Assembly: GCA_049513715.1 (NCBI GenBank) | Contig: JBEKVV010000004.1 | Location: forward strand, 64,001-128,000 | Source: Candidatus Bathyarchaeia archaeon | GTDB taxonomy: Archaea > Thermoproteota > Bathyarchaeia > 40CM-2-53-6 | DNA: 64,000 nucleotides | Direction of reading: 5' to 3' | Shown: in pieces, positions 2,833-55,865 of the stretch | How positions within the stretch are numbered: position 1 is the stretch's first letter | Layout: every line of letters begins with the position of its first letter | Translations under genes and position numbers: made by a program | Notes under the pieces: generated by a model | What the model saw: the letters and a program-made list of their open reading frames with translations, nothing else | Database searches by the model: none | What the model was told of the DNA's origin: nothing

Positions 2833-4380
2833 GTGTGTGGTGTAGACTTCCGCGCGATTTCCTTGTATAAATGCTCATTATGTCAGAAAGAAATCCGTGA
2901 AGGGCAACGTCCTGACTACTCGCCCATAAGAGGAATGGTGCACTATGCATGTCATGTTGGCCTCATAAAGAGTGAAGTACCAACTACAACAGCAAACGAA
3001 ATCTCTAATGTGCCTTGGCTTGAATCACTGAATAAGATCGTGGGACCAGAAAATGTGAAGACCCTTTACTTGGAGCGAGCGTATTATTTCCGGGATCACT
3101 CCACAGATTTTATCGACCTCGCACATGGCCATGTGCCTGATGCTGTGGTACTCCCTACTAACGAAGATGAAGTGTCCCAGTTGGTGGCCTTTGCAGCCAA
3201 AGAAAAGATCGCGATAATTCCGAGAGGGTCGGGAACCGGGTTTATGGGGGGTTCTGTAGCCGTCGGCGGTGGAATAGTTGTGGACCTAACCGGAATGAGC
3301 AGGATTATCGAAATCGACGAACACAATTACCGTGTCACAGCCGAATCCGGAGCGAATATGCAAGCCGTCGAACACGAACTCAACAAGAAAGGTTTGACTC
3401 TTGGCTTTGACCCTGGAAGCATGCCAGCTGTGTCGATAGGCGGCTCTGTCTCCACAGATCAGATTGGTGGGGATGGTTGGTACAGCAATGTGGGGTCAAT
3501 GAGACACAGGGTCATGTGTCTGAGAGTGGTTCTACCCGATGGTGGTGTTGTCAGTACAGGGCGGATGGTAGATCGCTCCTCCTCGACGGTAAATCTAACC
3601 CAACTCTTCCTTGGTGCGGAGGGAGCATTCGGAATCGTTTCTCAAGTCACTCTTAGAGTCTTTCCTCTGCCGGAAACGACTGATTTGCGGGTCGTGGTTT
3701 TTGATAGTTTCCGGCAAGCCGCCGGTGCTACCATGGAAATGATGCGTGTTGGGGTTTGGCCTCCTATACATCATACCGTTGAGGTCGTGAGGCCCGACGA
3801 GTCATCTGACAATAATGTGGTGAACTCCTTCGGAATGCTTGTTCTTGGTTTCGCTGGGTCGAAGGAGGTTGTGGCTGCACAAAGGGAAAGAACGCTATCG
3901 ATATGTGTGTCAAACGGCGGAGTGGACGCGGGTAAGCAAGCAGCGAACGATTACTGGGAACGTCATCATGAAGCTTACCCGGCCAATCTTCCCGGTAACA
4001 AGGTTTACGGGATGGAGGTCGTGTCGCTTCCACTCACCAAAGTGCTCCCAGTTTATGACGAATTCTGCTCCACAATCAGAAAACATGGCATGCAAAGGTA
4101 CGGATCCGGATTTGGGCTATTCCCTACGACGATGTGGGTTGGATATATTTTTGACAATACCGAGGATGGGCTTAAGGTAAAGACGGCTGCCACTGAGGAG
4201 ATGCTGAAGGCAGCCACAGGAGCAGGCGGGACAATTTCTGGGGTCCATGGAGTCGGTTACATCAAGAGAGATTACTCTTCCTTTGAATTCGACAACGACC
4301 AGTTAGCGCTAATACGAAGGTTGAAGAAAGCGCTTGATCCAAACGGAATCATGAACCCTGGGAAGGGCCCCTACGCTTAA
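2833..4380 (+). CDS. FAD-linked oxidoreductase (GlcD/D-lactate dehydrogenase/VAO family) with N-terminal Cys/His finger
   Basis: Motifs PDAVVLP, PRGSGTGFMGG, DPGS, GAEGAFGIVS, GGTISGVHGVG, LDPNGIMNPGK. Exact start uncertain. Confidence 0.9.
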   Translation: MCGVDFRAISLYKCSLCQKEIREGQRPDYSPIRGMVHYACHVGLIKSEVPTTTANEISNVPWLESLNKIVGPENVKTLYLERAYYFRDHSTDFIDLAHGHVPDAVVLPTNEDEVSQLVAFAAKEKIAIIPRGSGTGFMGGSVAVGGGIVVDLTGMSRIIEIDEHNYRVTAESGANMQAVEHELNKKGLTLGFDPGSMPAVSIGGSVSTDQIGGDGWYSNVGSMRHRVMCLRVVLPDGGVVSTGRMVDRSSSTVNLTQLFLGAEGAFGIVSQVTLRVFPLPETTDLRVVVFDSFRQAAGATMEMMRVGVWPPIHHTVEVVRPDESSDNNVVNSFGMLVLGFAGSKEVVAAQRERTLSICVSNGGVDAGKQAANDYWERHHEAYPANLPGNKVYGMEVVSLPLTKVLPVYDEFCSTIRKHGMQRYGSGFGLFPTTMWVGYIFDNTEDGLKVKTAATEEMLKAATGAGGTISGVHGVGYIKRDYSSFEFDNDQLALIRRLKKALDPNGIMNPGKGPYA

Positions 4381-4517
4381 TGCCTTTGCAAATCTAATAG
4401 TGCCTTCCTCTCATTTTCTCCTACCAAATGTTCCACCAACATTGACTAGCAATGGCGTATCGGCTTCGGGCAACTCCGAACAGCTTATAGGATTAGTGCG
4501 AGGCAGTCGACTAGCGA

Positions 4518-5261
4518 TTGATTATGTTTGATGGGATTCCAATTGTGGATGCTCACTGTCACATTGGCTATTTTGGCGGATGGGCCAATGTGGGAATTAC
4601 TTCCGAAGAACTGATGGCATTAAACAAGCAATTCAACGTGGTGCACTCGGTGGTGTTCACACAGCCAAACAGTTTGACTGCCGAAGCTGCAAAGAGATAC
4701 CCGCGTAACCTTACTGGTTATGTTTGGCTTAATCCGTTCGATGGAGACAAGGCCATCAGCGAGCTGCACACCGCGGTCAAAGAATGGGGCTGCAAGGGCG
4801 TAAAGCTGCATCCGCTGTTTCAGGCTTTCATCGCTGATGACCCGATAGTTTACCCAATAATGGATGAAGCCAGAAAACTCAAGATTCCTGTTGCCATTCA
4901 CTCTGGTCACCCGCCCTTTTCACTCCCATGGAGCATCGGCGAGTTGGCGGAGGTCTACCCGGACGTTACTGTTGTGATGCTTCATATGGGACACGGCCAC
5001 GGTCTATACATACGGGCAGCAATCAACGCGGCAAAGAGATACCCCAACATAGTTCTGGAGACATCTGGTATGCCAATGCACACCAAGATCAAAGAGGCAA
5101 TGGAGACCGTTGGAGAAGACCGGGTCATGTACGGATGCGATATTCCGTTTCATCATCCCTCCGTTGAACTCCAACGCATCAAGATGGCGGGACTAAATGA
5201 GAATCAGCTTCGAAAGATACTGCATGACAATGCAGTAGAAAAACTCGGTTTAATCTTCTGA
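4518..5261 (+). CDS. Amidohydrolase-2 family metal-dependent hydrolase
   Basis: DAHCH, GVKLHP, IHSG, LHMG and MYGCDIP metal-ligand pattern. Confidence 0.9.
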   Translation: MIMFDGIPIVDAHCHIGYFGGWANVGITSEELMALNKQFNVVHSVVFTQPNSLTAEAAKRYPRNLTGYVWLNPFDGDKAISELHTAVKEWGCKGVKLHPLFQAFIADDPIVYPIMDEARKLKIPVAIHSGHPPFSLPWSIGELAEVYPDVTVVMLHMGHGHGLYIRAAINAAKRYPNIVLETSGMPMHTKIKEAMETVGEDRVMYGCDIPFHHPSVELQRIKMAGLNENQLRKILHDNAVEKLGLIF

Positions 5262-42747: not shown

Positions 42748-43021
42748 GGATCAGATTTCAGGCTGCAAGTTCCTAAAATACTTGCTTACAATCCGCGCGC
42801 CGCGCGATGATGTTGATTTTTTCCTGATATCGCTTCAATAAATCATGATTACCAAACAGTAGATCCTATCTCGCGCAATCTCAATCACTCCGTTCTTCGT
42901 CTGTTGGGTTGGTGCGCGTTGTGGGAAAAACTCATACATACAGCTGCACCTCAACACGGCGCCTATTGATTTGATTAAACGCGGCCCAGAACATGATTGC
43001 CATCGGCAAAAAGTGAAGTGT

Positions 43022-43903
43022 ATGCCTTTTCATCCAACGGATTACTTCGAACCCACCACTCCTGAAGAGGTGTGCGGACTTCTTTCGCAGTATGGCAAGC
43101 ATGCAAAGGTGATCGCGGGCGGGACTGCGATTTACGAATTGGCAAAGCGAGACTTGGCATCTGAGGTTAAGCAATTAGTCAGCCTTCGCAAGGTTCCGCT
43201 GAAATATGTTCGCAGAGATGAGCAAGGGCTGCATGTTGGAGCCACAACTCCCCTCGCTGAACTCGCAGGCTCATCTGAAGTTAATAGTGATCCTTTGCTG
43301 CAAGTCTTGGCGGAAGCGCTCCGAGAGATTAGGCCTATGCAGGTTCGGGCTGTCGCAACCGTGGGAGGAGAAATTTGCACATCCCTTCCACTATTGGATT
43401 TACCCCCAGCGCTACTTGCACTCGACACAGTCGCGATTATTCAAGGGGAGAGTCGCCAAAGAGCTATCGCCCTCAATGAGTTCCTAGTGGATTTCTTCCT
43501 GAACGCCCTGAATAGAAGCGAATTTCTCGTTGAGGCGTTGATTCCAAAGCAGCCGGAACATTCGGGCTCAGCGTTTTTGAAGTTTGGCCGCACGGCTTAC
43601 GACTTCAACTTAATCAATGTTGCAACTAGGCTGACGCTCGCCAAAGACGGAACCTGCTCGGATACGAGAATCATTCTTGGCGGAGTTGGGCGCGTGCCAT
43701 TGCGCGCGGCTGCGTCTGAAAACGAGATCAAGGGTCGACGGATTGATGACCAGACAGTGGCCAGGGCTGCGGAAGCATTGGGTGAATTCAAAGCGATACC
43801 CCAAATTCATGGCGACGCTGGATACAAACGAGACATCGCACGTGTGCTGGTTCGGGATTGTGTTAAGCGGGCTGCGGAACGGACGTTGGTGGTGGCACAT
43901 TGA
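43022..43903 (+). CDS. Xanthine dehydrogenase-family FAD subunit, second system
   Basis: YFEPTT, AGGT, QVRAVATVGG. Likely start is the ATG at 43022. Confidence 0.88.
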   Translation: MPFHPTDYFEPTTPEEVCGLLSQYGKHAKVIAGGTAIYELAKRDLASEVKQLVSLRKVPLKYVRRDEQGLHVGATTPLAELAGSSEVNSDPLLQVLAEALREIRPMQVRAVATVGGEICTSLPLLDLPPALLALDTVAIIQGESRQRAIALNEFLVDFFLNALNRSEFLVEALIPKQPEHSGSAFLKFGRTAYDFNLINVATRLTLAKDGTCSDTRIILGGVGRVPLRAAASENEIKGRRIDDQTVARAAEALGEFKAIPQIHGDAGYKRDIARVLVRDCVKRAAERTLVVAH

Positions 43904-44367
43904 AGAACAAAGTCGCACTGCGAGTGAATGGCAAGAAGTACGAATTGGAGCTGGGCCCGTATGCGCTACTGTCGGAAGTTCTTCGCGAGGATTTGGGTTT
44001 GAAGGGGACGAAGCGGGGTTGCGATTTCGGTGGTTGTGGTGCCTGCACGGTTCTCATGGATAGGCAAGCGATCTACTCTTGCATGATGCCTGCGCGGCAC
44101 GCGGAGGGACATGAGATTACCACGATAGAGGGCTTAGCGGAGGGTGGGAAATTGTCGCCAGTTCAAAGATCGTTCGTGAAGAACATGGGATTTCAATGCG
44201 GCTACTGCACGCCGGGAATAATAATATCCGCAACGGCTTTGCTCAAACGTAACCCGCACCCAACCGAGGACGACATGCGTGAAGCGTTGGCGGGGAACCT
44301 GTGCAGGTGCACAGGCTACACGAGCATCTTCAAATCCATCAAAGAAGCAGCCGAAACGCAAACCTAG
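43900..44367 (+). CDS. Xanthine dehydrogenase-family [2Fe-2S] subunit, second system
   Basis: GCDFGGCGACTV, QCGYCTPG, NLCRCTGY. Confidence 0.95.
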   Translation: MKNKVALRVNGKKYELELGPYALLSEVLREDLGLKGTKRGCDFGGCGACTVLMDRQAIYSCMMPARHAEGHEITTIEGLAEGGKLSPVQRSFVKNMGFQCGYCTPGIIISATALLKRNPHPTEDDMREALAGNLCRCTGYTSIFKSIKEAAETQT

Positions 44368-44376
44368 CAGGATATA

Positions 44377-46752
44377 TCAGTCAACAAAGACTGTTTCGTT
44401 ATTCTTCTTCTCTTTGAGGGCTTTCAGAATTCTCTCCCCCGTGACTGGGAGCGACCGGAATCTGAGGCCTATGGCGTTGTGGATTGCGTTGGTTATGGCT
44501 GGTGCGGTTGCGGTTATAGGGGCCTCGCCGCAGCCTTTCGCCCCGAACGGGCCTTCCTCGAAGGGGTTTTCGAGGATTTTGGATTGAATGGGAACGTAGT
44601 CCATTGAAGTCCAGATCTTGTAGTCTTTGAGGTCCCCATTAATGACCTGGCCGTCTTGAATTACGAGTTCTTCGGAGATGGTTGTGCTGGCGCCCATGAT
44701 GATGCCGCCCTCATTCTGCCCTAGCACATTCAGCGGGTTAATTACACGGCCAACATCCAACACGCCAATAATGTTCAGCAACTTGACCTGTCCAGTTTCA
44801 ATGTTCGTGGCTAGGTCGACGACCTGAACCACGGGTGTGTAGTAGGCTACGGCCCGATCTGTGGAGCATTGTCCAGTCTCTGGATCAAGTTCTCCGGTTT
44901 CGGGGTGCCAGACAGCTTTCGACGCGAACTCACCGATTCCCTCAACAAAGCCATCGCCCATGGGACCCGGCCTGAACAAGTCACGAACACGAACCTGCAC
45001 GCCAGGATTCTTCCTACCACGAACCACTCCGTCTGCGAGTTCCAAGTCGTCTGGGTTCAGGTTTAGTTTGCGTGAGGCGATTGTGAGAATTTGGGCTTTG
45101 ACGCCGCGGCAGGCCATGCTCACCGCTTTGCCGAGTTGAGAGGTTTGCCTGCTGCCACTGGCTCCGGGGCCGACGGGGGCGAAGGATGAGTCTGCTTCCC
45201 GAATGGTTATGCTTTCAAGTGGTAGTTTGGATTCCTCTGCCGCGATTTGCGCTAGTCCAGTTCGGGTTCCTTCCCCGGGGTCTGCGACAGCGGTTGAAAT
45301 CTCAACGGTGTCGTCTTCCCTGTACTTTGCGTATGCCATGCTTGGGAAGCTTACGTCACACATCTCTTGGGCGACGGCTATTCCTCGGCCGAATCGCCAG
45401 TGGCTGTCGAGTTTGGGTTTCGGAATCTTCTCCGCTTCTTTAAGCGCTGTCGTTATGCATTCTTGTAGGGTGAATTTTCTCATTCGTTCGCCCATTGCGT
45501 TCTTGGAGTCGGTTCTTAGCATGTTCTTCAAGCGAAGTTGGATCGGGTCGATGTTGAGTTTCTGAGCGATGATGTCCATCTGGGATTCTATGGCGAAATA
45601 TGCTTGGGGCGTCCCGAAGCCGCGGAAGGCGCCGCCTTGAACCTGGTTCGTGTAAACGCGGAAGACGTCTAGTTTGAAGTTTGGAATATCATAGACGCAG
45701 ACGGAGGCGTAGACGCAGTCCCTGACAGCCACGTTGCCTGCTAGGGAGTAGGCGCCGCCGTTGTAGATGGCTTCCATTTCCCTGGCGATTATTCGGCCGT
45801 CGGCATTGACGCCGTCTTTGATTCTGATTATGGACGGATGCCGGATGGAGGTGGTCTCGAAGACTTCCTCGCGGGTGAAGGTGATTTTCACGGGCTTGCT
45901 TGTTTTGAGGGTTAGGGCCGCGCATATTAGTTCGGCGTGGGTTTGGCCCTTGTTTCCGAAGCCGCCGCCGACGTATGGTGGGATGATGACGCGGATTTTG
46001 GATTGCGGAATTCCGAGTCCGTCGCTGAGTTCTTTTCTGGCCCTGTAGACGTTCTGTCCTGACACCCAGACCACCAATGTCCCGTCGGGCTCTGTCGAGG
46101 CGATTGCGGCAACTGGCTCAATGTGCATGTGCTGCACAGGGTGAGTGCGAAACGTATTCTCAACGACTAAGTGGGCTTCCTTGAAGCCCTGCTCGACGTC
46201 GCCATGCCTGACTTTGAACCTGTTTGTCACGTTAGGGCGGGATGGGTCTGTGGCCGCCCGATAAATCTGCGAGGAGTACCGTTTGTAGTTAGGAAGGTCT
46301 GGGTGAACTGTGACCGGTGGGTTTTCTTTGACGGATACAAGGGAGTCGAAGATTGGTTCAAGCTCCTTGTATTTGACCTCGATTAACTCGGCCGCTTCCT
46401 TGGCCAGGTCCTTTGTTTCGGCAGCGACGGCCGCGACCGGCTCGCCAATGTACCTGACCCTGCCCCTGGACAGGATTGGGGTGTCGTAGAGCCCGCGTCC
46501 TCGTAACCCTGCTGGCACATCATCACCGGTTATTACTGCATGAACGCCGGCGAGTGCTTCGGCGCGGGATTTGTTGATGGAGATTATCTCCGCGTGGGGA
46601 AGGGGGCTGCGTTTGATTGCGCCATGCAACATGCGCGGCAGCTCCATATCATAAACGTACACAGCACGCCCCGTAACGACCTCCTCAGCTCCTATGCGGG
46701 GGAGTGCTTTCCCGATGACCTTCGAATCGCGAGCTAGTTCCGATTGTTGCAA
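44377..46752 (-). CDS. Xanthine dehydrogenase-family Mo-binding large subunit, second system
   Basis: RSPLPHA, GGGFGNK, GAFRGFG, GQNEGG, GAKGCGE. Confidence 0.92.
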   Translation of the reverse strand: MQQSELARDSKVIGKALPRIGAEEVVTGRAVYVYDMELPRMLHGAIKRSPLPHAEIISINKSRAEALAGVHAVITGDDVPAGLRGRGLYDTPILSRGRVRYIGEPVAAVAAETKDLAKEAAELIEVKYKELEPIFDSLVSVKENPPVTVHPDLPNYKRYSSQIYRAATDPSRPNVTNRFKVRHGDVEQGFKEAHLVVENTFRTHPVQHMHIEPVAAIASTEPDGTLVVWVSGQNVYRARKELSDGLGIPQSKIRVIIPPYVGGGFGNKGQTHAELICAALTLKTSKPVKITFTREEVFETTSIRHPSIIRIKDGVNADGRIIAREMEAIYNGGAYSLAGNVAVRDCVYASVCVYDIPNFKLDVFRVYTNQVQGGAFRGFGTPQAYFAIESQMDIIAQKLNIDPIQLRLKNMLRTDSKNAMGERMRKFTLQECITTALKEAEKIPKPKLDSHWRFGRGIAVAQEMCDVSFPSMAYAKYREDDTVEISTAVADPGEGTRTGLAQIAAEESKLPLESITIREADSSFAPVGPGASGSRQTSQLGKAVSMACRGVKAQILTIASRKLNLNPDDLELADGVVRGRKNPGVQVRVRDLFRPGPMGDGFVEGIGEFASKAVWHPETGELDPETGQCSTDRAVAYYTPVVQVVDLATNIETGQVKLLNIIGVLDVGRVINPLNVLGQNEGGIIMGASTTISEELVIQDGQVINGDLKDYKIWTSMDYVPIQSKILENPFEEGPFGAKGCGEAPITATAPAITNAIHNAIGLRFRSLPVTGERILKALKEKKNNETVFVD

Positions 46753-48905: not shown

Positions 48906-49283
48906 CTTGACGGCTCATCCTCAACGAGTTTCAGGTATGGTACAATAAGGGCTGATTAAGTCAACGGTTTGACTCTCAGAATCAACAGGATGTAATTGAG
49001 CAATGAACCACGGGGCTGCAGACTGCCCGAGTTCTGCCTCTCAGAAATGCTGTCTATGACTGCCGCTCTCTCTACCTGTCTTCACAGCGTTTAGGAACTC
49101 AATGCATGCGGACTGATTGTTGCCTGATTTTCCTCTAATCACCGCATCATTCCTAGATTGGGATTTGGTCATCCGTGCCCGTCGCGGCAACAAGCCGATC
49201 CTCGTGGCAAGTAATCCACTGGCAAGAACTTCATTTCCCTTGGAACCGCAACTCCCATATCGTTGGAATGACAAGTATAGTAC

Positions 49284-49510
49284 GCTGCCTAACCGAGACA
49301 GGGGTAGATTCGTCGGTCGGCTTCGTCCCAGGGTTTGCCTTGGGTCGCATTGTGGATCGATGAGCGCTCGGGTGTAACGTCACGACGCTAGCGGGAAACC
49401 GTAGAAACTCCGTGAGGCCCGAGTGAGGGAAAACCAAGGCGGAGGATGGAGGGAAAGGTCGAATGTCCCTCGCGAAGGGAAAGCCACATCTGCCTCGAGA
49501 GTTAGGCAGC
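49284..49510 (+). ncRNA. Candidate structured ncRNA with terminal BHB-like processing motif (putative 200-nt circular RNA precursor)
   Basis: Perfect 10-bp closing stem GCTGCCTAAC/GTTAGGCAGC. Central helix CGAG/CTCG has 3-nt bulges ACA and AGA. Nested G-U-containing helices and GNRA-type loops; no credible ORF. Confidence 0.7.
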
Positions 49511-50163
49511 TAACTTCTTACTTTCTCCCACGTAGCCAACAAAGCTTCTTCATAGGTTTCAGGGTCCACCTCCCTTGCTCTACGCATATCGACATCAATG
49601 AAGAAGAGCGAGTGAACTCTGCCTGAAGCTATCTCCTCCAAGGGTATGGGCGGATTCTCGTAGTAGCGGTCGCACAGCTTCTTCGTCTTCTCAATCTCTT
49701 CTCGTTCTCTCACTTTTGGAGGTTTCAGGAAAAGTGCGGGGATTGGCAGAACTTGGTAGAGAGGGGAGGCCAGGCTGAACTTGTCCGCGAACCTGCTGTA
49801 CCTCGCTATCTTGCTGGCAATTCTGGCCGAACAAAATGCAGTAGGATCCAACGCGTGCTCCGGAGGAACAAACCCAGTCTCTATTTCTATAACCGCTCTT
49901 CCATCGCCCTTGATCCCCAACAAATCGCAGACAAGGGATTCTCCCAAGCGATGCTCAACATCTACATCATAGCCCTTCAAGATCAAATCTTTGGCGCAGA
50001 TAAATTCCATGGCCGAGTGGTTGATCTTCACCAGATTTTGTCTGTGCATCTTAACCAGCTTCGTCTTTATGGCGTCGAGCTTGAAGAATGCCTCATCGTT
50101 CTGGTCAGGGACCAGTTTTGAGAGAAGAGCATCGAGGTCGGATGCGAACTTGTCGTCGCCCAT
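49510..50163 (-). CDS. Hypothetical protein with PD-(D/E)XK-like nuclease signature
   Basis: H-helix, VDVEH..CD......IEIETG (D-xn-ExE); clean 217-aa ORF. Confidence 0.65.
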   Translation of the reverse strand: MGDDKFASDLDALLSKLVPDQNDEAFFKLDAIKTKLVKMHRQNLVKINHSAMEFICAKDLILKGYDVDVEHRLGESLVCDLLGIKGDGRAVIEIETGFVPPEHALDPTAFCSARIASKIARYSRFADKFSLASPLYQVLPIPALFLKPPKVREREEIEKTKKLCDRYYENPPIPLEEIASGRVHSLFFIDVDMRRAREVDPETYEEALLATWEKVRS

Positions 50164-51179: not shown

Positions 51180-51258
51180 TGCCCTTCAGGGAACTTCGTC
51201 AAAGTTTCTTATTATGAACGAAATCTTTCCCGCTTGCAGCTGACAACCAAGAAAAGCT

Positions 51259-51284
51259 TAAACGTATACGTTTACGTTTACGAT
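51259..51284. promoter_or_regulatory. TA operon operator: 16-bp palindrome plus TACGTT tandem repeats
   Basis: TAAACGTATACGTTTA (51259-51274) is perfectly palindromic and overlaps an AAAAGCTTAAA BRE/TATA-like element. Confidence 0.65.
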
Positions 51285-51296
51285 GCCGTATGCGCT

Positions 51297-51482
51297 ATGA
51301 AGACTACTGTGATGCTGAGAGAAGACCTGTACGAGATCCTGAAGAGAAAATATGGACCGAGAGGCCTCTCCGAGGCCATCAACGTAATCTTGGCCGAGGC
51401 ATTGCTCAAAGGAGAGAGCATGTTCGGGACGATGCCCAAGAGGTCGCTCAAGGACTTGAGGAATCACAGTGACCGTATTTGA
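51297..51482 (+). CDS. vapB: VapB-type antitoxin (ribbon-helix-helix-like)
   Basis: MKTTVML.EDLY..L; small ORF overlapping the PIN gene by 4 nt. Confidence 0.8.
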   Translation: MKTTVMLREDLYEILKRKYGPRGLSEAINVILAEALLKGESMFGTMPKRSLKDLRNHSDRI

Positions 51483-51868
51483 GATACATCATGGACTCAT
51501 ATGCGTGGTTAGAATACTTCATGGGCACCGACTCCGGAAAAAAGGTGAAAGGCATCATTGACTCTGAGGCTCATGAGAAACTGACCCCGACGATTTGCTT
51601 GGCCGAAATATACTCCAAGATTCTGAGAACAGAGGATGAGAAGAAGGCGGAACTCCGTAGAGCTTTTATCAAATCTCGAAGTGGCCTCGTCCCACTTACT
51701 GAAGAAGTGGCAGTCGAAGCCGCTAAAGTCGATGTGACCATGAAACGTAAAGTTCAAGGTTGGGGGTTGGCTGACTCAATCGTGCTCTCCACCGCGCAAA
51801 ACAGGGACGGGAAAGTTGTTACAGGTGACCCGCACTTTCGAGGATTAACCGAGACCTTCATGATATAG
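51479..51868 (+). CDS. vapC: VapC PIN-domain toxin
   Basis: DSYAW.EY, LAE, GLADS, VTGD.HF. Confidence 0.92.
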   Translation: MRYIMDSYAWLEYFMGTDSGKKVKGIIDSEAHEKLTPTICLAEIYSKILRTEDEKKAELRRAFIKSRSGLVPLTEEVAVEAAKVDVTMKRKVQGWGLADSIVLSTAQNRDGKVVTGDPHFRGLTETFMI

Positions 51869-54053: not shown

Positions 54054-55865
54054 GTGGCCATGACTCTGGGTGGATATGCCAACCGGATCGCAAGAGTTAA
54101 CCTAACCCACAGCAAAGTCGATTATGAGCAGCCGAATGAAGAAGACCTGAAGAAGTACATTGGCGGCCGCGGGCTCGGCGTGAAATATGTTCTAGACAAC
54201 GGGCCAAAAGTGGAACCATTCTCTGAAGACAACATACTCTGCTTCATGACTGGACCTTTGGTGGGCAGCGAGGTTACGATGAGTGGCCGTATGGCCGTTG
54301 TCACGAAATCACCGCTAACAGGGACAGTGACGGATTCTCACCAAGGGGGTTGGTCAGGCGCACGGCTTCGATGGGCAGGCTTCGATGGAATAGTCTTCAG
54401 GGGTAGGGCGAAGAAACCGACCTACGCCTACATTGAGGACGGAAAGGTCACGTTGAAAGATGCATCCCACCTCTGGGGTAAGAACGTTCACGACACGGTC
54501 AAGGCGGTCAGGACGGAACACGGTGAACATGACACGAGTGTGGTCACCATAGGACACGCCGGAGAGAAACTGGTGAGGTTCGCTGCAATCATCAATGAGA
54601 ACGATCGTGCTTCTGGAAGAGGCGGCACGGGTGCAGTTATGGGATGGAAGAATCTGAAGTGCCTCGTAATCAAAGGCAGCATCAAAAACAAACCTACGCC
54701 CGCGCATCCAGATGAATTCAAAAATGCGGTAGCTGTCGCGAACACGGCCATCGTACAAGGAGCTGTGACTGCCCCCAGAAAGGGAGGTCTCTCTGTTTAT
54801 GGAACGGATGTACTCATGAACCTTGTCAATGAAATCGGCGCTCTTCCAACTAAGAATGCGCAATTGACGCAGTTCGACCATGCAGACCAGTTGAGCGGGG
54901 AAACCATAAAGGAGACGATTCTGGTCGGCGACCCGACCTGCCACGCCTGCCCTGTTGCATGCAAGAAAGAGGTAGAGGTGAAGGAGGGCAAGTATAAGGT
55001 CCACATGGAGAGCACTGAATACGAATCCATGTGGTCGCTTGGAGCCAACTGCGGGTGCAGCATCAAGGAGGCCGTTGCAAAGATGGTCTACCTGACCAAT
55101 GATTATGGAATGGATACGATCGAAACCGGCAACTGCCTCTCCGTCACAATGGAAGCAAGCGAACGCGGACTCATTCGCGACAAGGTTGAGTGGGGTAATG
55201 CGGATGCGATGATCGATCTCATTCACAAAATCGGGAAGAGGGAAGGTCTCGGTGACACTCTCGCGGAGGGCTGTTGGAGAGCCGCCAAAACCTTCGGGGA
55301 CGAAGGAATGGCCAACCAATCAAAGGGCCAAAGCATAGCGGCCTACGACCCGCGAGGCATGCAAGGGATGGGAATAGGATACGCCACATCCAATCGAGGA
55401 GCATGCCACCTCAGAGGATACACACCTGCAAGTGAAGTGCTCGGCGTACCCGGAAAGACAGACCCGCTCGGCTGGGAAGGCAAAGCAAAACTCCTAACGA
55501 TTTTCCAAGACCTACACGCCATCTCGGATTCATTCGACATCTGTAAGTTCAACGCGTTCTCAGAGGGAATTAACGAATACGTCGCGCAATTCAATGCCAT
55601 GACTGGTCTACAATTGGACGCGGATGGCCTGATGAAGGCTGGTGAAAGAATCTACAACCTAGAACGCTACTACAACAACTTATGCGGATTCACAGGCAAG
55701 GATGACTCGCTCCCGGAAAGATTCTTGAAGCGACCCGGTTCCGGGCCCGCTGCAGGTCATGTGTGCGAGCTCGATAAGATGAAGAAGGAGTACTACGAAG
55801 CCCGCGGTTGGGTTGACGGCGTGGTCCCCCAGCAGAAACTGCAAGAACTAGGAATAATCGCCTAA
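54054..55865 (+). CDS. aor: Aldehyde:ferredoxin oxidoreductase, copy 3
   Basis: GGRG, SGRGGTGAVMG, CHACPVAC, EYES, GMDTIE, YDPRG, RGACH. Confidence 0.95.
   Translation: MAMTLGGYANRIARVNLTHSKVDYEQPNEEDLKKYIGGRGLGVKYVLDNGPKVEPFSEDNILCFMTGPLVGSEVTMSGRMAVVTKSPLTGTVTDSHQGGWSGARLRWAGFDGIVFRGRAKKPTYAYIEDGKVTLKDASHLWGKNVHDTVKAVRTEHGEHDTSVVTIGHAGEKLVRFAAIINENDRASGRGGTGAVMGWKNLKCLVIKGSIKNKPTPAHPDEFKNAVAVANTAIVQGAVTAPRKGGLSVYGTDVLMNLVNEIGALPTKNAQLTQFDHADQLSGETIKETILVGDPTCHACPVACKKEVEVKEGKYKVHMESTEYESMWSLGANCGCSIKEAVAKMVYLTNDYGMDTIETGNCLSVTMEASERGLIRDKVEWGNADAMIDLIHKIGKREGLGDTLAEGCWRAAKTFGDEGMANQSKGQSIAAYDPRGMQGMGIGYATSNRGACHLRGYTPASEVLGVPGKTDPLGWEGKAKLLTIFQDLHAISDSFDICKFNAFSEGINEYVAQFNAMTGLQLDADGLMKAGERIYNLERYYNNLCGFTGKDDSLPERFLKRPGSGPAAGHVCELDKMKKEYYEARGWVDGVVPQQKLQELGIIA

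Follow-up and report, generated by a model that had tools for sequence, protein, structure and literature searches.

A gene family of Bathyarchaeia and Nitrososphaeria that probably makes a 200-nt circular RNA from a precursor closed by a bulge-helix-bulge motif

Introduction

RNA rings made at bulge-helix-bulge (BHB) motifs have so far been known mainly as by-products, in the case of tRNA introns, as intermediates, in the case of pre-rRNA, or as the outcome of the repair of one permuted gene, that of the signal recognition particle (SRP) RNA of Thermoproteus. In archaeal tRNA introns and in the stems of pre-16S and pre-23S rRNA, as described in PMC12918454, a long helix adjoins two bulges of 3 nt each that are spaced by 4 bp, the splicing endonuclease EndA cuts, RtcB ligates and rings are produced. 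The closest described case to the one presented here is the permuted, BHB-circularised SRP RNA of Thermoproteus tenax. According to Plagens et al. 2015 (PMC4731332), a stand-alone non-coding RNA (ncRNA) gene carries a splicing-endonuclease site, the ligated ring is stable and functional, and the joint restores a structural element; in these respects our locus would resemble it. Here we describe positions 49284-49510 of a 64,000-nt stretch of a Candidatus Bathyarchaeia archaeon genome (contig JBEKVV010000004.1), which belong to a whole gene family that apparently exists only to make a ring. The entire stretch is called the window; coordinates are positions in it, and the strand is + unless stated.

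In our judgement, a dedicated gene probably gives rise to a BHB-ended precursor that is converted by cutting and joining into a 200-nt ring, with EndA and RtcB as the presumed actors. A first-pass annotation, made from the letters of the window, had suggested a stand-alone circular ncRNA outside the described families. This suggestion has held: the ring joint occurs in RNA contigs, the BHB motif is conserved and no Rfam family matches.

The BHB motif of the precursor

The motif is composed of the following elements:
49284-49293 (+), outer stem, 5' strand GCTGCCTAAC; 10 bp, predicted to be left behind in the discarded flank
49294-49297 (+), central 4-bp BHB helix, 5' strand CGAG
49298-49300 (+), 5' bulge ACA; presumed cut after 49299
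49494-49497 (+), central BHB helix, 3' strand CUCG; overlaps the 3' strand of helix P1 of the ring
49498-49500 (+), 3' bulge AGA; presumed cut after 49499
49501-49510 (+), outer stem, 3' strand GTTAGGCAGC; predicted discarded flank

The outer stem, the 4-bp central helix and the two 3-nt bulges are all found where the first-pass annotation had placed them. By inspection of the sequence, each strand of the central helix is followed on its 3' side by three unpaired bases. It is this order of helix and bulge on both strands that gives a 7-nt anticodon loop when a tRNA is spliced. Of the features of a splicing-endonuclease substrate, two 3-nt bulges on opposite strands, a 4-bp spacer helix and a flanking outer helix are present. 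The folding energy of the + strand is -100.1 kcal/mol (z -3.94; none of 200 shuffles as good) and that of the - strand is -80.2 kcal/mol (z -2.98).

The predicted joint in public RNA

The piece of RNA in question is, on the basis of RNA-contig cover and of a back-joint, the following:
49300-49499 (+), excised RNA, 200 nt

In an index of public runs, the 227-nt stretch was found in 20 runs (16 on record as RNA, 15 studies), whose source habitats are soil, freshwater, lake, compost and groundwater. Four runs from four studies (X1, X2, X5 and X7) were compared over 49150-49650, in the form of Logan assembled contigs. A joint that leads from 49499 back to 49300, that is, back by 200 positions, is present in one contig each of X1, X2 and X5, hence in three of the four runs and in three studies, at contig depths of 14.9, 167.6 and 18.1, respectively, and with 31 letters on the shorter side. 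The joint form of relatives, 49498 + A + 49300 (the GAAA variant), also occurs in these three runs. Cover is limited to the bins 49286-49506; none of the four runs has any on 49150-49285 or 49507-49650. Release of 49300-49499 and a junction of CTGCCTCGAG with AGGGGTAGAT had been foreseen from the sequence: the RNA-contig cover matches the 200-nt circle, and exactly this junction is the one carried by X1, X2 and X5.

In X2, a soil metatranscriptome of only 19 million letters, contig word depths of about 70-740 are reached over 49300-49499, with several strain variants summed. Contig depth is a poor measure of expression, and with this proviso the depths suggest that the 49300-49499 RNA is very abundant in X2. 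The ring RNA is one that assembles even from very small soil metatranscriptomes.

Conservation and covariation of the two folds

A total of 33 distinct full-length homologs were aligned, 21 of them in alignment A6 and a further 12 added by A9, an alignment of 20 sequences; the values below refer to the 21 sequences unless other numbers are given. A search for homologs and for covariation had been proposed at the outset as a check on the motif. The BHB motif is kept in all 33 homologs, from both Bathyarchaeia and Nitrososphaeria, with compensatory changes in the outer stem and in the central helix. In the whole structure, BHB included, 94.0% of the cells are paired, as against 71.1% in shuffles (0 of 500 shuffles as high); 57 of the 70 pairs have changed on both sides, and slid controls are 33-39% paired. 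The outer stem is 98.6% paired and 9 of its 10 pairs covary, while the central helix is paired in 84 of 84 cells (100%), with 3 of 4 pairs covarying, and occurs as CGAG/CUCG, CGAA/UUCG, CGGA/UUCG, CAGG/CCUG, CGGG/CCUG and CGGG/CCCG, with CGGA/UCCG among further homologs. Judged by these alignments, the BHB motif is more than chance.

The bulges are equally constant in size, being 3 nt long on both sides in every aligned homolog. The third base of the 5' bulge is A in all of them and the 3' bulge follows the pattern A-R-N; the bulge bases that would leave with the flanks are variable among homologs. Outside the stems, the sequence is not conserved.

A second helix is conserved alongside the first. 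The triplet that follows the 5' bulge (GGG, GAG, GGA, GAA or AGG) tracks the inner triplet of the central helix and, since it is a copy of that triplet, either of the two can pair with the same 3' strand. This alternative, post-excision pairing of the triplet is present in 61 of 63 cells (96.8%; 0 of 500 shuffles as high), of which 14 are changed on both sides, and it is only partial in G113 (GUC), L178 and L109. Across the joint, a loop of four bases would form: the final G of the central helix, then bases 1 and 2 of the 3' bulge, then base 3 of the 5' bulge. This loop reads GAAA or GAGA (G-A-R-A) in 21/21 and 20/20 aligned sequences. In other words, the 9-bp stem with a GNRA tetraloop that ligation had been predicted to create is borne out by the homologs, both in its invariable loop pattern and in the covariation of the stem extension.

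Architecture of the proposed ring

The ring folds as a junction of four arms, P1 to P4, all of them supported by covariation:
49301-49309 (+), P1, 5' strand GGGGUAGAU; its first 3 bases mimic the GAG of the central helix and would pair with CUC only after excision
49310-49363 (+), P2 arm; tip hairpin CCAGGG-UUUG-CCUUGG; helices 93.5%, 74.4% and 98.8% paired
49365-49425 (+), P3 arm; tip GNRA hairpin GCGG-GAAA-CCGU; helices 93.1%, 92.5% and 93.6% paired
49427-49485 (+), P4 arm; conserved GAGGG..AAC and GAAAGCC strands opposed across an A-rich internal loop
49488-49496 (+), P1, 3' strand AUCUGCCUC; a conserved ACA lies just before it

Homologous rings measure 192-210 nt. Their best-conserved unpaired bases, invariant or nearly so, are GAGGG..AAC and GAAAGCC-ACA around P4. 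The inner helices that the first-pass annotation had drawn fared unevenly. Specifically, GCUCGGGU/GCCCGAGU (93.1% paired) and the hairpin CGG-GAAA-CCG (93.6%) stand, whereas UUUGCCUUGG/CCAAGGCGGA (63.4%), CUUCGUCC/GGAUGGAG (66.7%) and UCCCU/AGGGA (56.2%) are complementary in this sequence but are not kept in relatives. In place of UUUGCCUUGG/CCAAGGCGGA there is the local hairpin CCAGGG/CCUUGG, which is 98.8% paired and covaries in 7 of its 8 pairs. In a naive screen for additional covarying pairs (pseudoknots), the signal was swamped by noise. For the discarded flanks, the only structure possible is a hairpin of 10 bp with a 7-nt loop, the small hairpin that had been expected of them.

Promoter, processing and rival explanations

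Upstream of the outer stem lies a candidate promoter:
49244-49261 (+), promoter-like element; A-rich stretch resembling a B recognition element (BRE) and weak TATA-like CCCATATC at 49254-49261

This element is conserved in 8 Bathyarchaeia loci, where it ends about 22-24 nt before the outer stem; G041 and G049 have TATAAATA at the same place as CCCATATC. In ten Nitrososphaeria loci, AAAAGTTTATATC precedes the stem by 22-26 nt and follows the stop codon of the protein gene that lies upstream of the RNA. The archaeal BRE/TATA rule places the start of transcription on the first base of the stem or slightly ahead of it, so that the primary transcript would be little more than the hairpin-closed precursor. 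The RNA gene is therefore predicted to have its own promoter of archaeal type.

The mechanism that we propose would start from an independently transcribed gene, yielding a precursor of about 227 nt whose ends are paired into a relaxed BHB. The tRNA-splicing endonuclease, presumably EndA, would cut after the second base of each bulge, that is, after 49299 and 49499, and RtcB would be the likely ligase that joins the ends of 49300-49499 into a 200-nt ring. With the flanks gone, CUC would swap partners, from GAG to the GGG that follows the 5' bulge. This swap would lengthen P1 to 9 bp and cap it with a tetraloop, GAGA, that spans the joint and is absent without it. The four-arm ring would be the stable and abundant product and the flanks would be discarded. 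The design of the sequence would then be explained by two successive folds, the precursor presenting the cut sites and the product being closed by a tetraloop that ligation makes.

Several observations weigh against this proposal. As regards structure, the minimum-energy fold of the precursor omits the central helix of the BHB and pairs GGGGUAGAU (49301-49309) with AUCUGCCUC (49488-49496) instead; moreover, formation of the central helix leaves GGG 49301-49303 single-stranded between the bulge and a 6-bp inner helix (49304-49309/49488-49493). As regards RNA, X7 contributed a single contig (49328-49501) with no joint, the last two letters of which fit the ring equally well, and the joint can be placed only to within 2 nt, as AG is read at 49500-49501 as well as at 49300-49301. 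In addition, the RNA evidence consists of assembled contigs, which are without strand, molecule ends or ratio of ring to linear form, and RNA libraries can contain DNA, although any such DNA would include the flanks.

The structural objections have a reading of their own. Because the minimum-energy fold uses GGGGUAGAU/AUCUGCCUC, CUC 49494-49496 has two possible partners and the two helices are mutually exclusive, and with GGG 49301-49303 unpaired the 5' site is a relaxed, bulge-helix-loop-like (BHL-like) form of the motif, short of the strict form with an abutting inner helix. The weak inner helix and relaxed BHB noted in the first reading of the DNA correspond to this sharing of CUC by two rival helices and to the GGG that is left over. 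Two mutually exclusive helices that both covary point to a precursor fold followed by a product fold, since a molecule with a single fold needs no such pair; as far as the alignments tell, the BHB motif and its rival fold are both under selection. As to the enzymes, the source genome (2.79 Mb in 11 contigs) encodes two open reading frames (ORFs) with the EndA domain tRNA_int_endo, of 214 and 226 aa, and one RtcB ORF. PMC5829648 describes non-canonical introns as cleaved only by the (alpha-beta)2 and epsilon2 types of EndA, and a heterotetrameric EndA, which is said there to be of the kind that cuts relaxed motifs, would fit the presence of two such proteins.

Of the rival explanations, the one that survives best, although we consider it improbable, is that the ring is a passing intermediate of processing, comparable to the circular pre-16S and pre-23S rRNA of model archaea, and that the working form is a linear RNA re-opened elsewhere. 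Contigs cannot show where molecules end or how much of the RNA is ring and how much linear, and a circular form is the usual fate of BHB-excised pre-rRNA in the account of PMC12918454. The joint, however, creates a G-A-R-A tetraloop that is conserved and sits on a covarying stem, a sign of selection for the joined form. No site where many molecules begin or end is listed, though contigs show such sites poorly.

We give far less credit to the view that the RNA is linear and of an ordinary structured kind, closed by a long stem that contains an internal loop, and that its back-joint is an artefact of assembly, template switching or DNA. It would agree with a minimum-energy fold that needs no BHB, with evidence made of contigs only and with the missing joint of X7. 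Yet the same joint, the one predicted by the BHB, occurs in three studies with 31 letters on its shorter side; cover ends at the cut sites, though the outer stem would belong to a linear RNA; and the covariation of both rival helices is unexplained by a linear RNA with a single state. A kink-turn (K-turn) reading of the internal loop fails as well. K-turns have tandem sheared G-A pairs after a 3-nt bulge, and these are essentially invariant; a K-turn or L7Ae-binding terminal loop was rejected, as in G041 and G049 an A replaces each of G49297 and G49499, keeping a Watson-Crick pair.

Slightly less credible again is a BHB intron of a longer transcript, such as the mRNA of the neighbouring protein described below, with the spliced exons as the real product. 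It is true that in 10 Nitrososphaeria loci the RNA lies 49-67 nt past the stop codon of that protein on the same strand, but the promoter-like TTTATATC stands between stop codon and stem in those 10 loci, and in Bathyarchaeia the RNA is on the strand opposite to the protein gene. Furthermore, the sequence beyond the stems is not conserved, the flanks are without RNA cover and, once joined, they make only a hairpin. Finally, a mobile, viroid-like or viral element in place of a cellular gene, to which the patchy occurrence within the genus (RNA in 5 of 23 genomes, the source genome G000 included) and the abundant small RNA ring as product might point, is the least plausible of all, given a single copy, a conserved position beside the same protein gene, DNA encoding in every genome where the RNA is found, and 43 pattern matches in viral contigs, none of them homologous.

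A family apart from known RNAs

That the RNA matches neither tRNA, rRNA, SRP RNA nor RNase P RNA had been claimed from the sequence, and the searches agree. Rfam at gathering thresholds gave no match to the linear sequence over the whole window, and at E up to 10 over 49100-49700 only a 13-bit chance match to Ms_IGR-2. RNase P RNA was rejected, as there is no match at the locus and the genome has its own RNase P RNA at C1:235847-236142 (188 bits). SRP RNA was rejected likewise, the linear locus being without a match and a canonical SRP RNA lying at C1:348050-348367 (160 bits); both of these genes are on a different contig from the ring locus. A tRNA gene with an intron was rejected too: ARAGORN finds no tRNA in the window, and the flanks amount to the 10-bp hairpin with its 7-nt loop. 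A dispersed repeat of the type of a miniature inverted-repeat transposable element, the many copies of which had been named as a check, was rejected because the source genome holds one copy. Single-base insertions and deletions between close relatives argue against coding by the short overlapping ORFs, and none of 43 pattern matches in viral contigs is homologous to the ring RNA. Literature searches, with subscription journals outside their reach, found no published description of this RNA family. On these comparisons of sequence, the 49300-49499 RNA is a new family, matching no Rfam family in its linear form.

Distribution of the RNA

By BLAST against 61 related genomes, 7 full-length copies were found at 78-92% identity, that of the source genome (G000) included; pieces of 24-33 nt in G010, G037 and G045 were dropped as noise. 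A covariance model, R1, found the RNA in 8 of 105 genomes of the order, in 3 of 151 genomes of a class sample and in 3 of 151 genomes of a phylum sample, of which one 24-bit match (G305), not confirmed by a second model, was dropped. This second model, R2, covers the 3' 93 nt; RNAalifold gave it no more than 2 base pairs, so that it works as a sequence profile. Among 80 loci anchored on the neighbouring 217-aa protein, R1 found 15 full-length copies, in Bathyarchaeia, Nitrosocaldus (three named species-level metagenome-assembled genomes), Nitrososphaerales, Nitrosopumilales and Nitrososphaera, and these same 15 loci were recovered with an nhmmer profile of A6; L093 (E 0.41) and L085 (E 0.87) were dropped as noise. 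R2 found the RNA in 14 of 41 relatives of one Nitrososphaera-type genome, with one doubtful case (G375, 25 bits). When applied to the newly fetched R2 loci, R1 gave a full-length match in 11 of 11, and also in L109. Within the genus, RNA and protein occur together in 5 of 23 genomes, G000 included, and were not found in the rest, some of which are 96-100% complete.

All these genome tallies are lower bounds, as the whole-genome RNA search is lossy at its first pass. For example, G354 had no R1 match in the whole-genome search yet 75.6 bits in the locus search; the missed copy makes absences from the whole-genome search unreliable. Two copies of the 3' part of the RNA are found on different contigs in G367 (C4 and C9) and in G374 (C72 and C63). 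All other genomes with an R2 match have one copy each, the maximum being 2 copies, in 2 of the 41 Nitrososphaeria.

A linked protein of 217 amino acids

The RNA gene faces the following neighbour:
49510-50163 (-), unannotated gene of a 217-aa protein; convergent with the RNA gene, its stop codon overlapping the last base of the outer stem

The protein belongs to no Pfam, NCBIfam or PADLOC family and has no sequence relative in the PDB. Among 5.8 billion proteins it has 2719 relatives, and all names among the best 120 are 'hypothetical'. When 1.84 billion representatives were searched with a profile, 244 clusters (at 50% identity) matched; the 150 listed are all of 59-274 aa, with no fusions hinting at a function. 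In the ESM Atlas only unnamed archaeal clusters match. The AlphaFold2 (AF2) model has a predicted local distance difference test (pLDDT) score of 90.8. With VIA-align, it gave Z values of 9.2 to 3dnx (root-mean-square deviation 2.4, 104 aligned), 8.9 to XisH (2okf) and 8.5 to AF1548, followed by NucS, YaeQ and Can2, all near the tool's stated background of 7-8, which limits the claim to the fold class; the Foldseek list is dominated by PD-(D/E)xK nucleases, with a best E of 1.3e-3. To judge from the model, the protein resembles PD-(D/E)xK nucleases in fold, with a core of the alpha/beta, restriction-endonuclease-like type. E53, D80, E93, E95 and K118 are invariant in the family and may include the D...(D/E)xK residues expected of such a nuclease.

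In the order, the protein is found in 25 of 105 genomes, which include all 8 RNA-positive ones, and in these 8 of 8 its gene is directly adjacent to the RNA. In the Nitrososphaeria sample of 41 genomes, the protein occurs in 29 (a tally that includes G381 and G368, two genomes flagged as unpublished), the RNA in 14 and both in 12. In 8 of these 12 the two lie on the same contig within 1.6 kb, in co-directional, convergent or spaced arrangement, and in ten Nitrososphaeria loci the RNA follows the stop codon of the protein by 49-67 nt on the same strand.

A number of exceptions speak against such a link. With filters off, 17 protein-bearing genomes of the order have no RNA within 2 kb (best score 11 bits); 65 of the 80 protein-anchored loci have no RNA nearby; G113, from another order, has RNA and protein on different contigs; and in Nitrososphaeria the protein is common anyway (29 of 41), so that co-occurrence there says little. 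R2 also found no RNA in the protein-bearing G355, G357, G358 and G359, with 150 candidates scored per genome. Counts of RNA and protein are, moreover, not independent, owing to kinship among the genomes. Taken on gene positions, the link between RNA and protein is strong without being universal, with patchy co-occurrence and free orientation. A strong link combined with free orientation argues for a functional tie rather than for co-transcription.

The most likely role of the ring, put forward tentatively, would be that of RNA partner or scaffold of this PD-(D/E)xK-fold protein. A more far-reaching version, on which we would place less weight still, is that ring and 217-aa protein may together form a new ribonucleoprotein, of which the ring would be the RNA subunit; this could be, for instance, a nuclease that is scaffolded or directed by RNA. 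It would occur in Bathyarchaeia and in many Nitrososphaeria that oxidise ammonia, and the tRNA-splicing machinery would have been taken over as a maturation pathway dedicated to it.

Some other genes around the protein are recorded here. In 21 of the 80 protein-anchored loci, an ORF of about 95 aa with a GIY-YIG domain lies directly downstream of the 217-aa protein gene, e.g. L042:3314-3601 (+), PF01541 E 1.8e-16, roughly where the RNA gene is in other lineages. In the Nitrososphaera-type locus L091, the 217-aa protein gene is faced by a convergent gene for an XPB/Rad25-like helicase (3143-4534, -; ResIII, Helicase_C, ERCC3_RAD25_C), and a 3-hydroxyacyl-CoA dehydrogenase gene stands between the protein gene and the RNA gene. 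Archaeal XPB pairs with the nuclease Bax1; in the fold list of the 217-aa protein Bax1 is weak, at rank 38. Elsewhere in the window, an 82-aa ORF without a Pfam family lies ahead of a PIN-domain (VapC-like) ORF at 51479-51868 (+) and overlaps it (span of the two 51234-51868), the usual layout of toxin-antitoxin genes. By eye, the span 42971-46752 holds three ORFs reminiscent of molybdopterin dehydrogenase subunits, one of 310 aa, one of 155 aa whose Cys pattern is 2Fe-2S-like and one of 791 aa, and an ORF like aldehyde:ferredoxin oxidoreductase (603 aa) lies at 54054-55865.

Comparison with known systems

The family spans two major and ecologically important archaeal classes, with relatives of Nitrosocaldus and Nitrososphaera among its hosts. 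It may serve as a natural model for the cellular production of stable, functional ring RNAs and offers a concrete target for biochemistry in ammonia oxidisers amenable to enrichment or culture. It also suggests that catalogues of archaeal RNA still miss abundant species.

Rings of ncRNA in archaea, some of them without an assigned function, have been reported from circRNA sequencing in Sulfolobus (Danan et al. 2012, PMC3326292), alongside circular C/D box sRNAs. The Sulfolobus rings put forward there are mostly joints of 20-70 nt in C/D box RNAs, RNase P RNA and 7S RNA, often minor, with a few unassigned ones of about 68 nt, and none of those considered here is a dedicated, BHB-flanked family of 200 nt. 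Metazoan tRNA intronic circular RNAs (tricRNAs; PMC4536317) are, like the ring proposed here, abundant rings attributed to the tRNA-splicing machinery; they are by-products of animal tRNA genes, whereas our locus has no tRNA part. The circular isoforms of archaeal IS200/IS605 omega RNAs (PMC12558985) offer a different likeness, that of a ring RNA genetically linked to a nuclease gene. Unlike at omega RNA loci, there is no TnpB or transposon here, and the linked protein has a predicted PD-(D/E)xK fold and belongs to an unnamed family.

With the T. tenax SRP RNA, the contrast concerns identity: the ring described in PMC4731332 is a member of a known family encoded by a permuted gene, whereas the present RNA matches no Rfam family, shows no sign of permutation and shares its genome with an ordinary SRP RNA elsewhere. 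With tRNA introns and pre-rRNA, the contrast concerns purpose, as the rings of PMC12918454 are by-products or intermediates, whereas here the excised piece would be the product and the flanks disposable. In its geometry, the 7-nt loop of the joined flanks corresponds to the anticodon loop of a spliced tRNA. Unlike tRNA and rRNA substrates, however, the locus contains no tRNA or rRNA, its 5' site is relaxed, and it carries a built-in copy of the helix triplet, by which the excised RNA would refold into a GNRA-capped hairpin.

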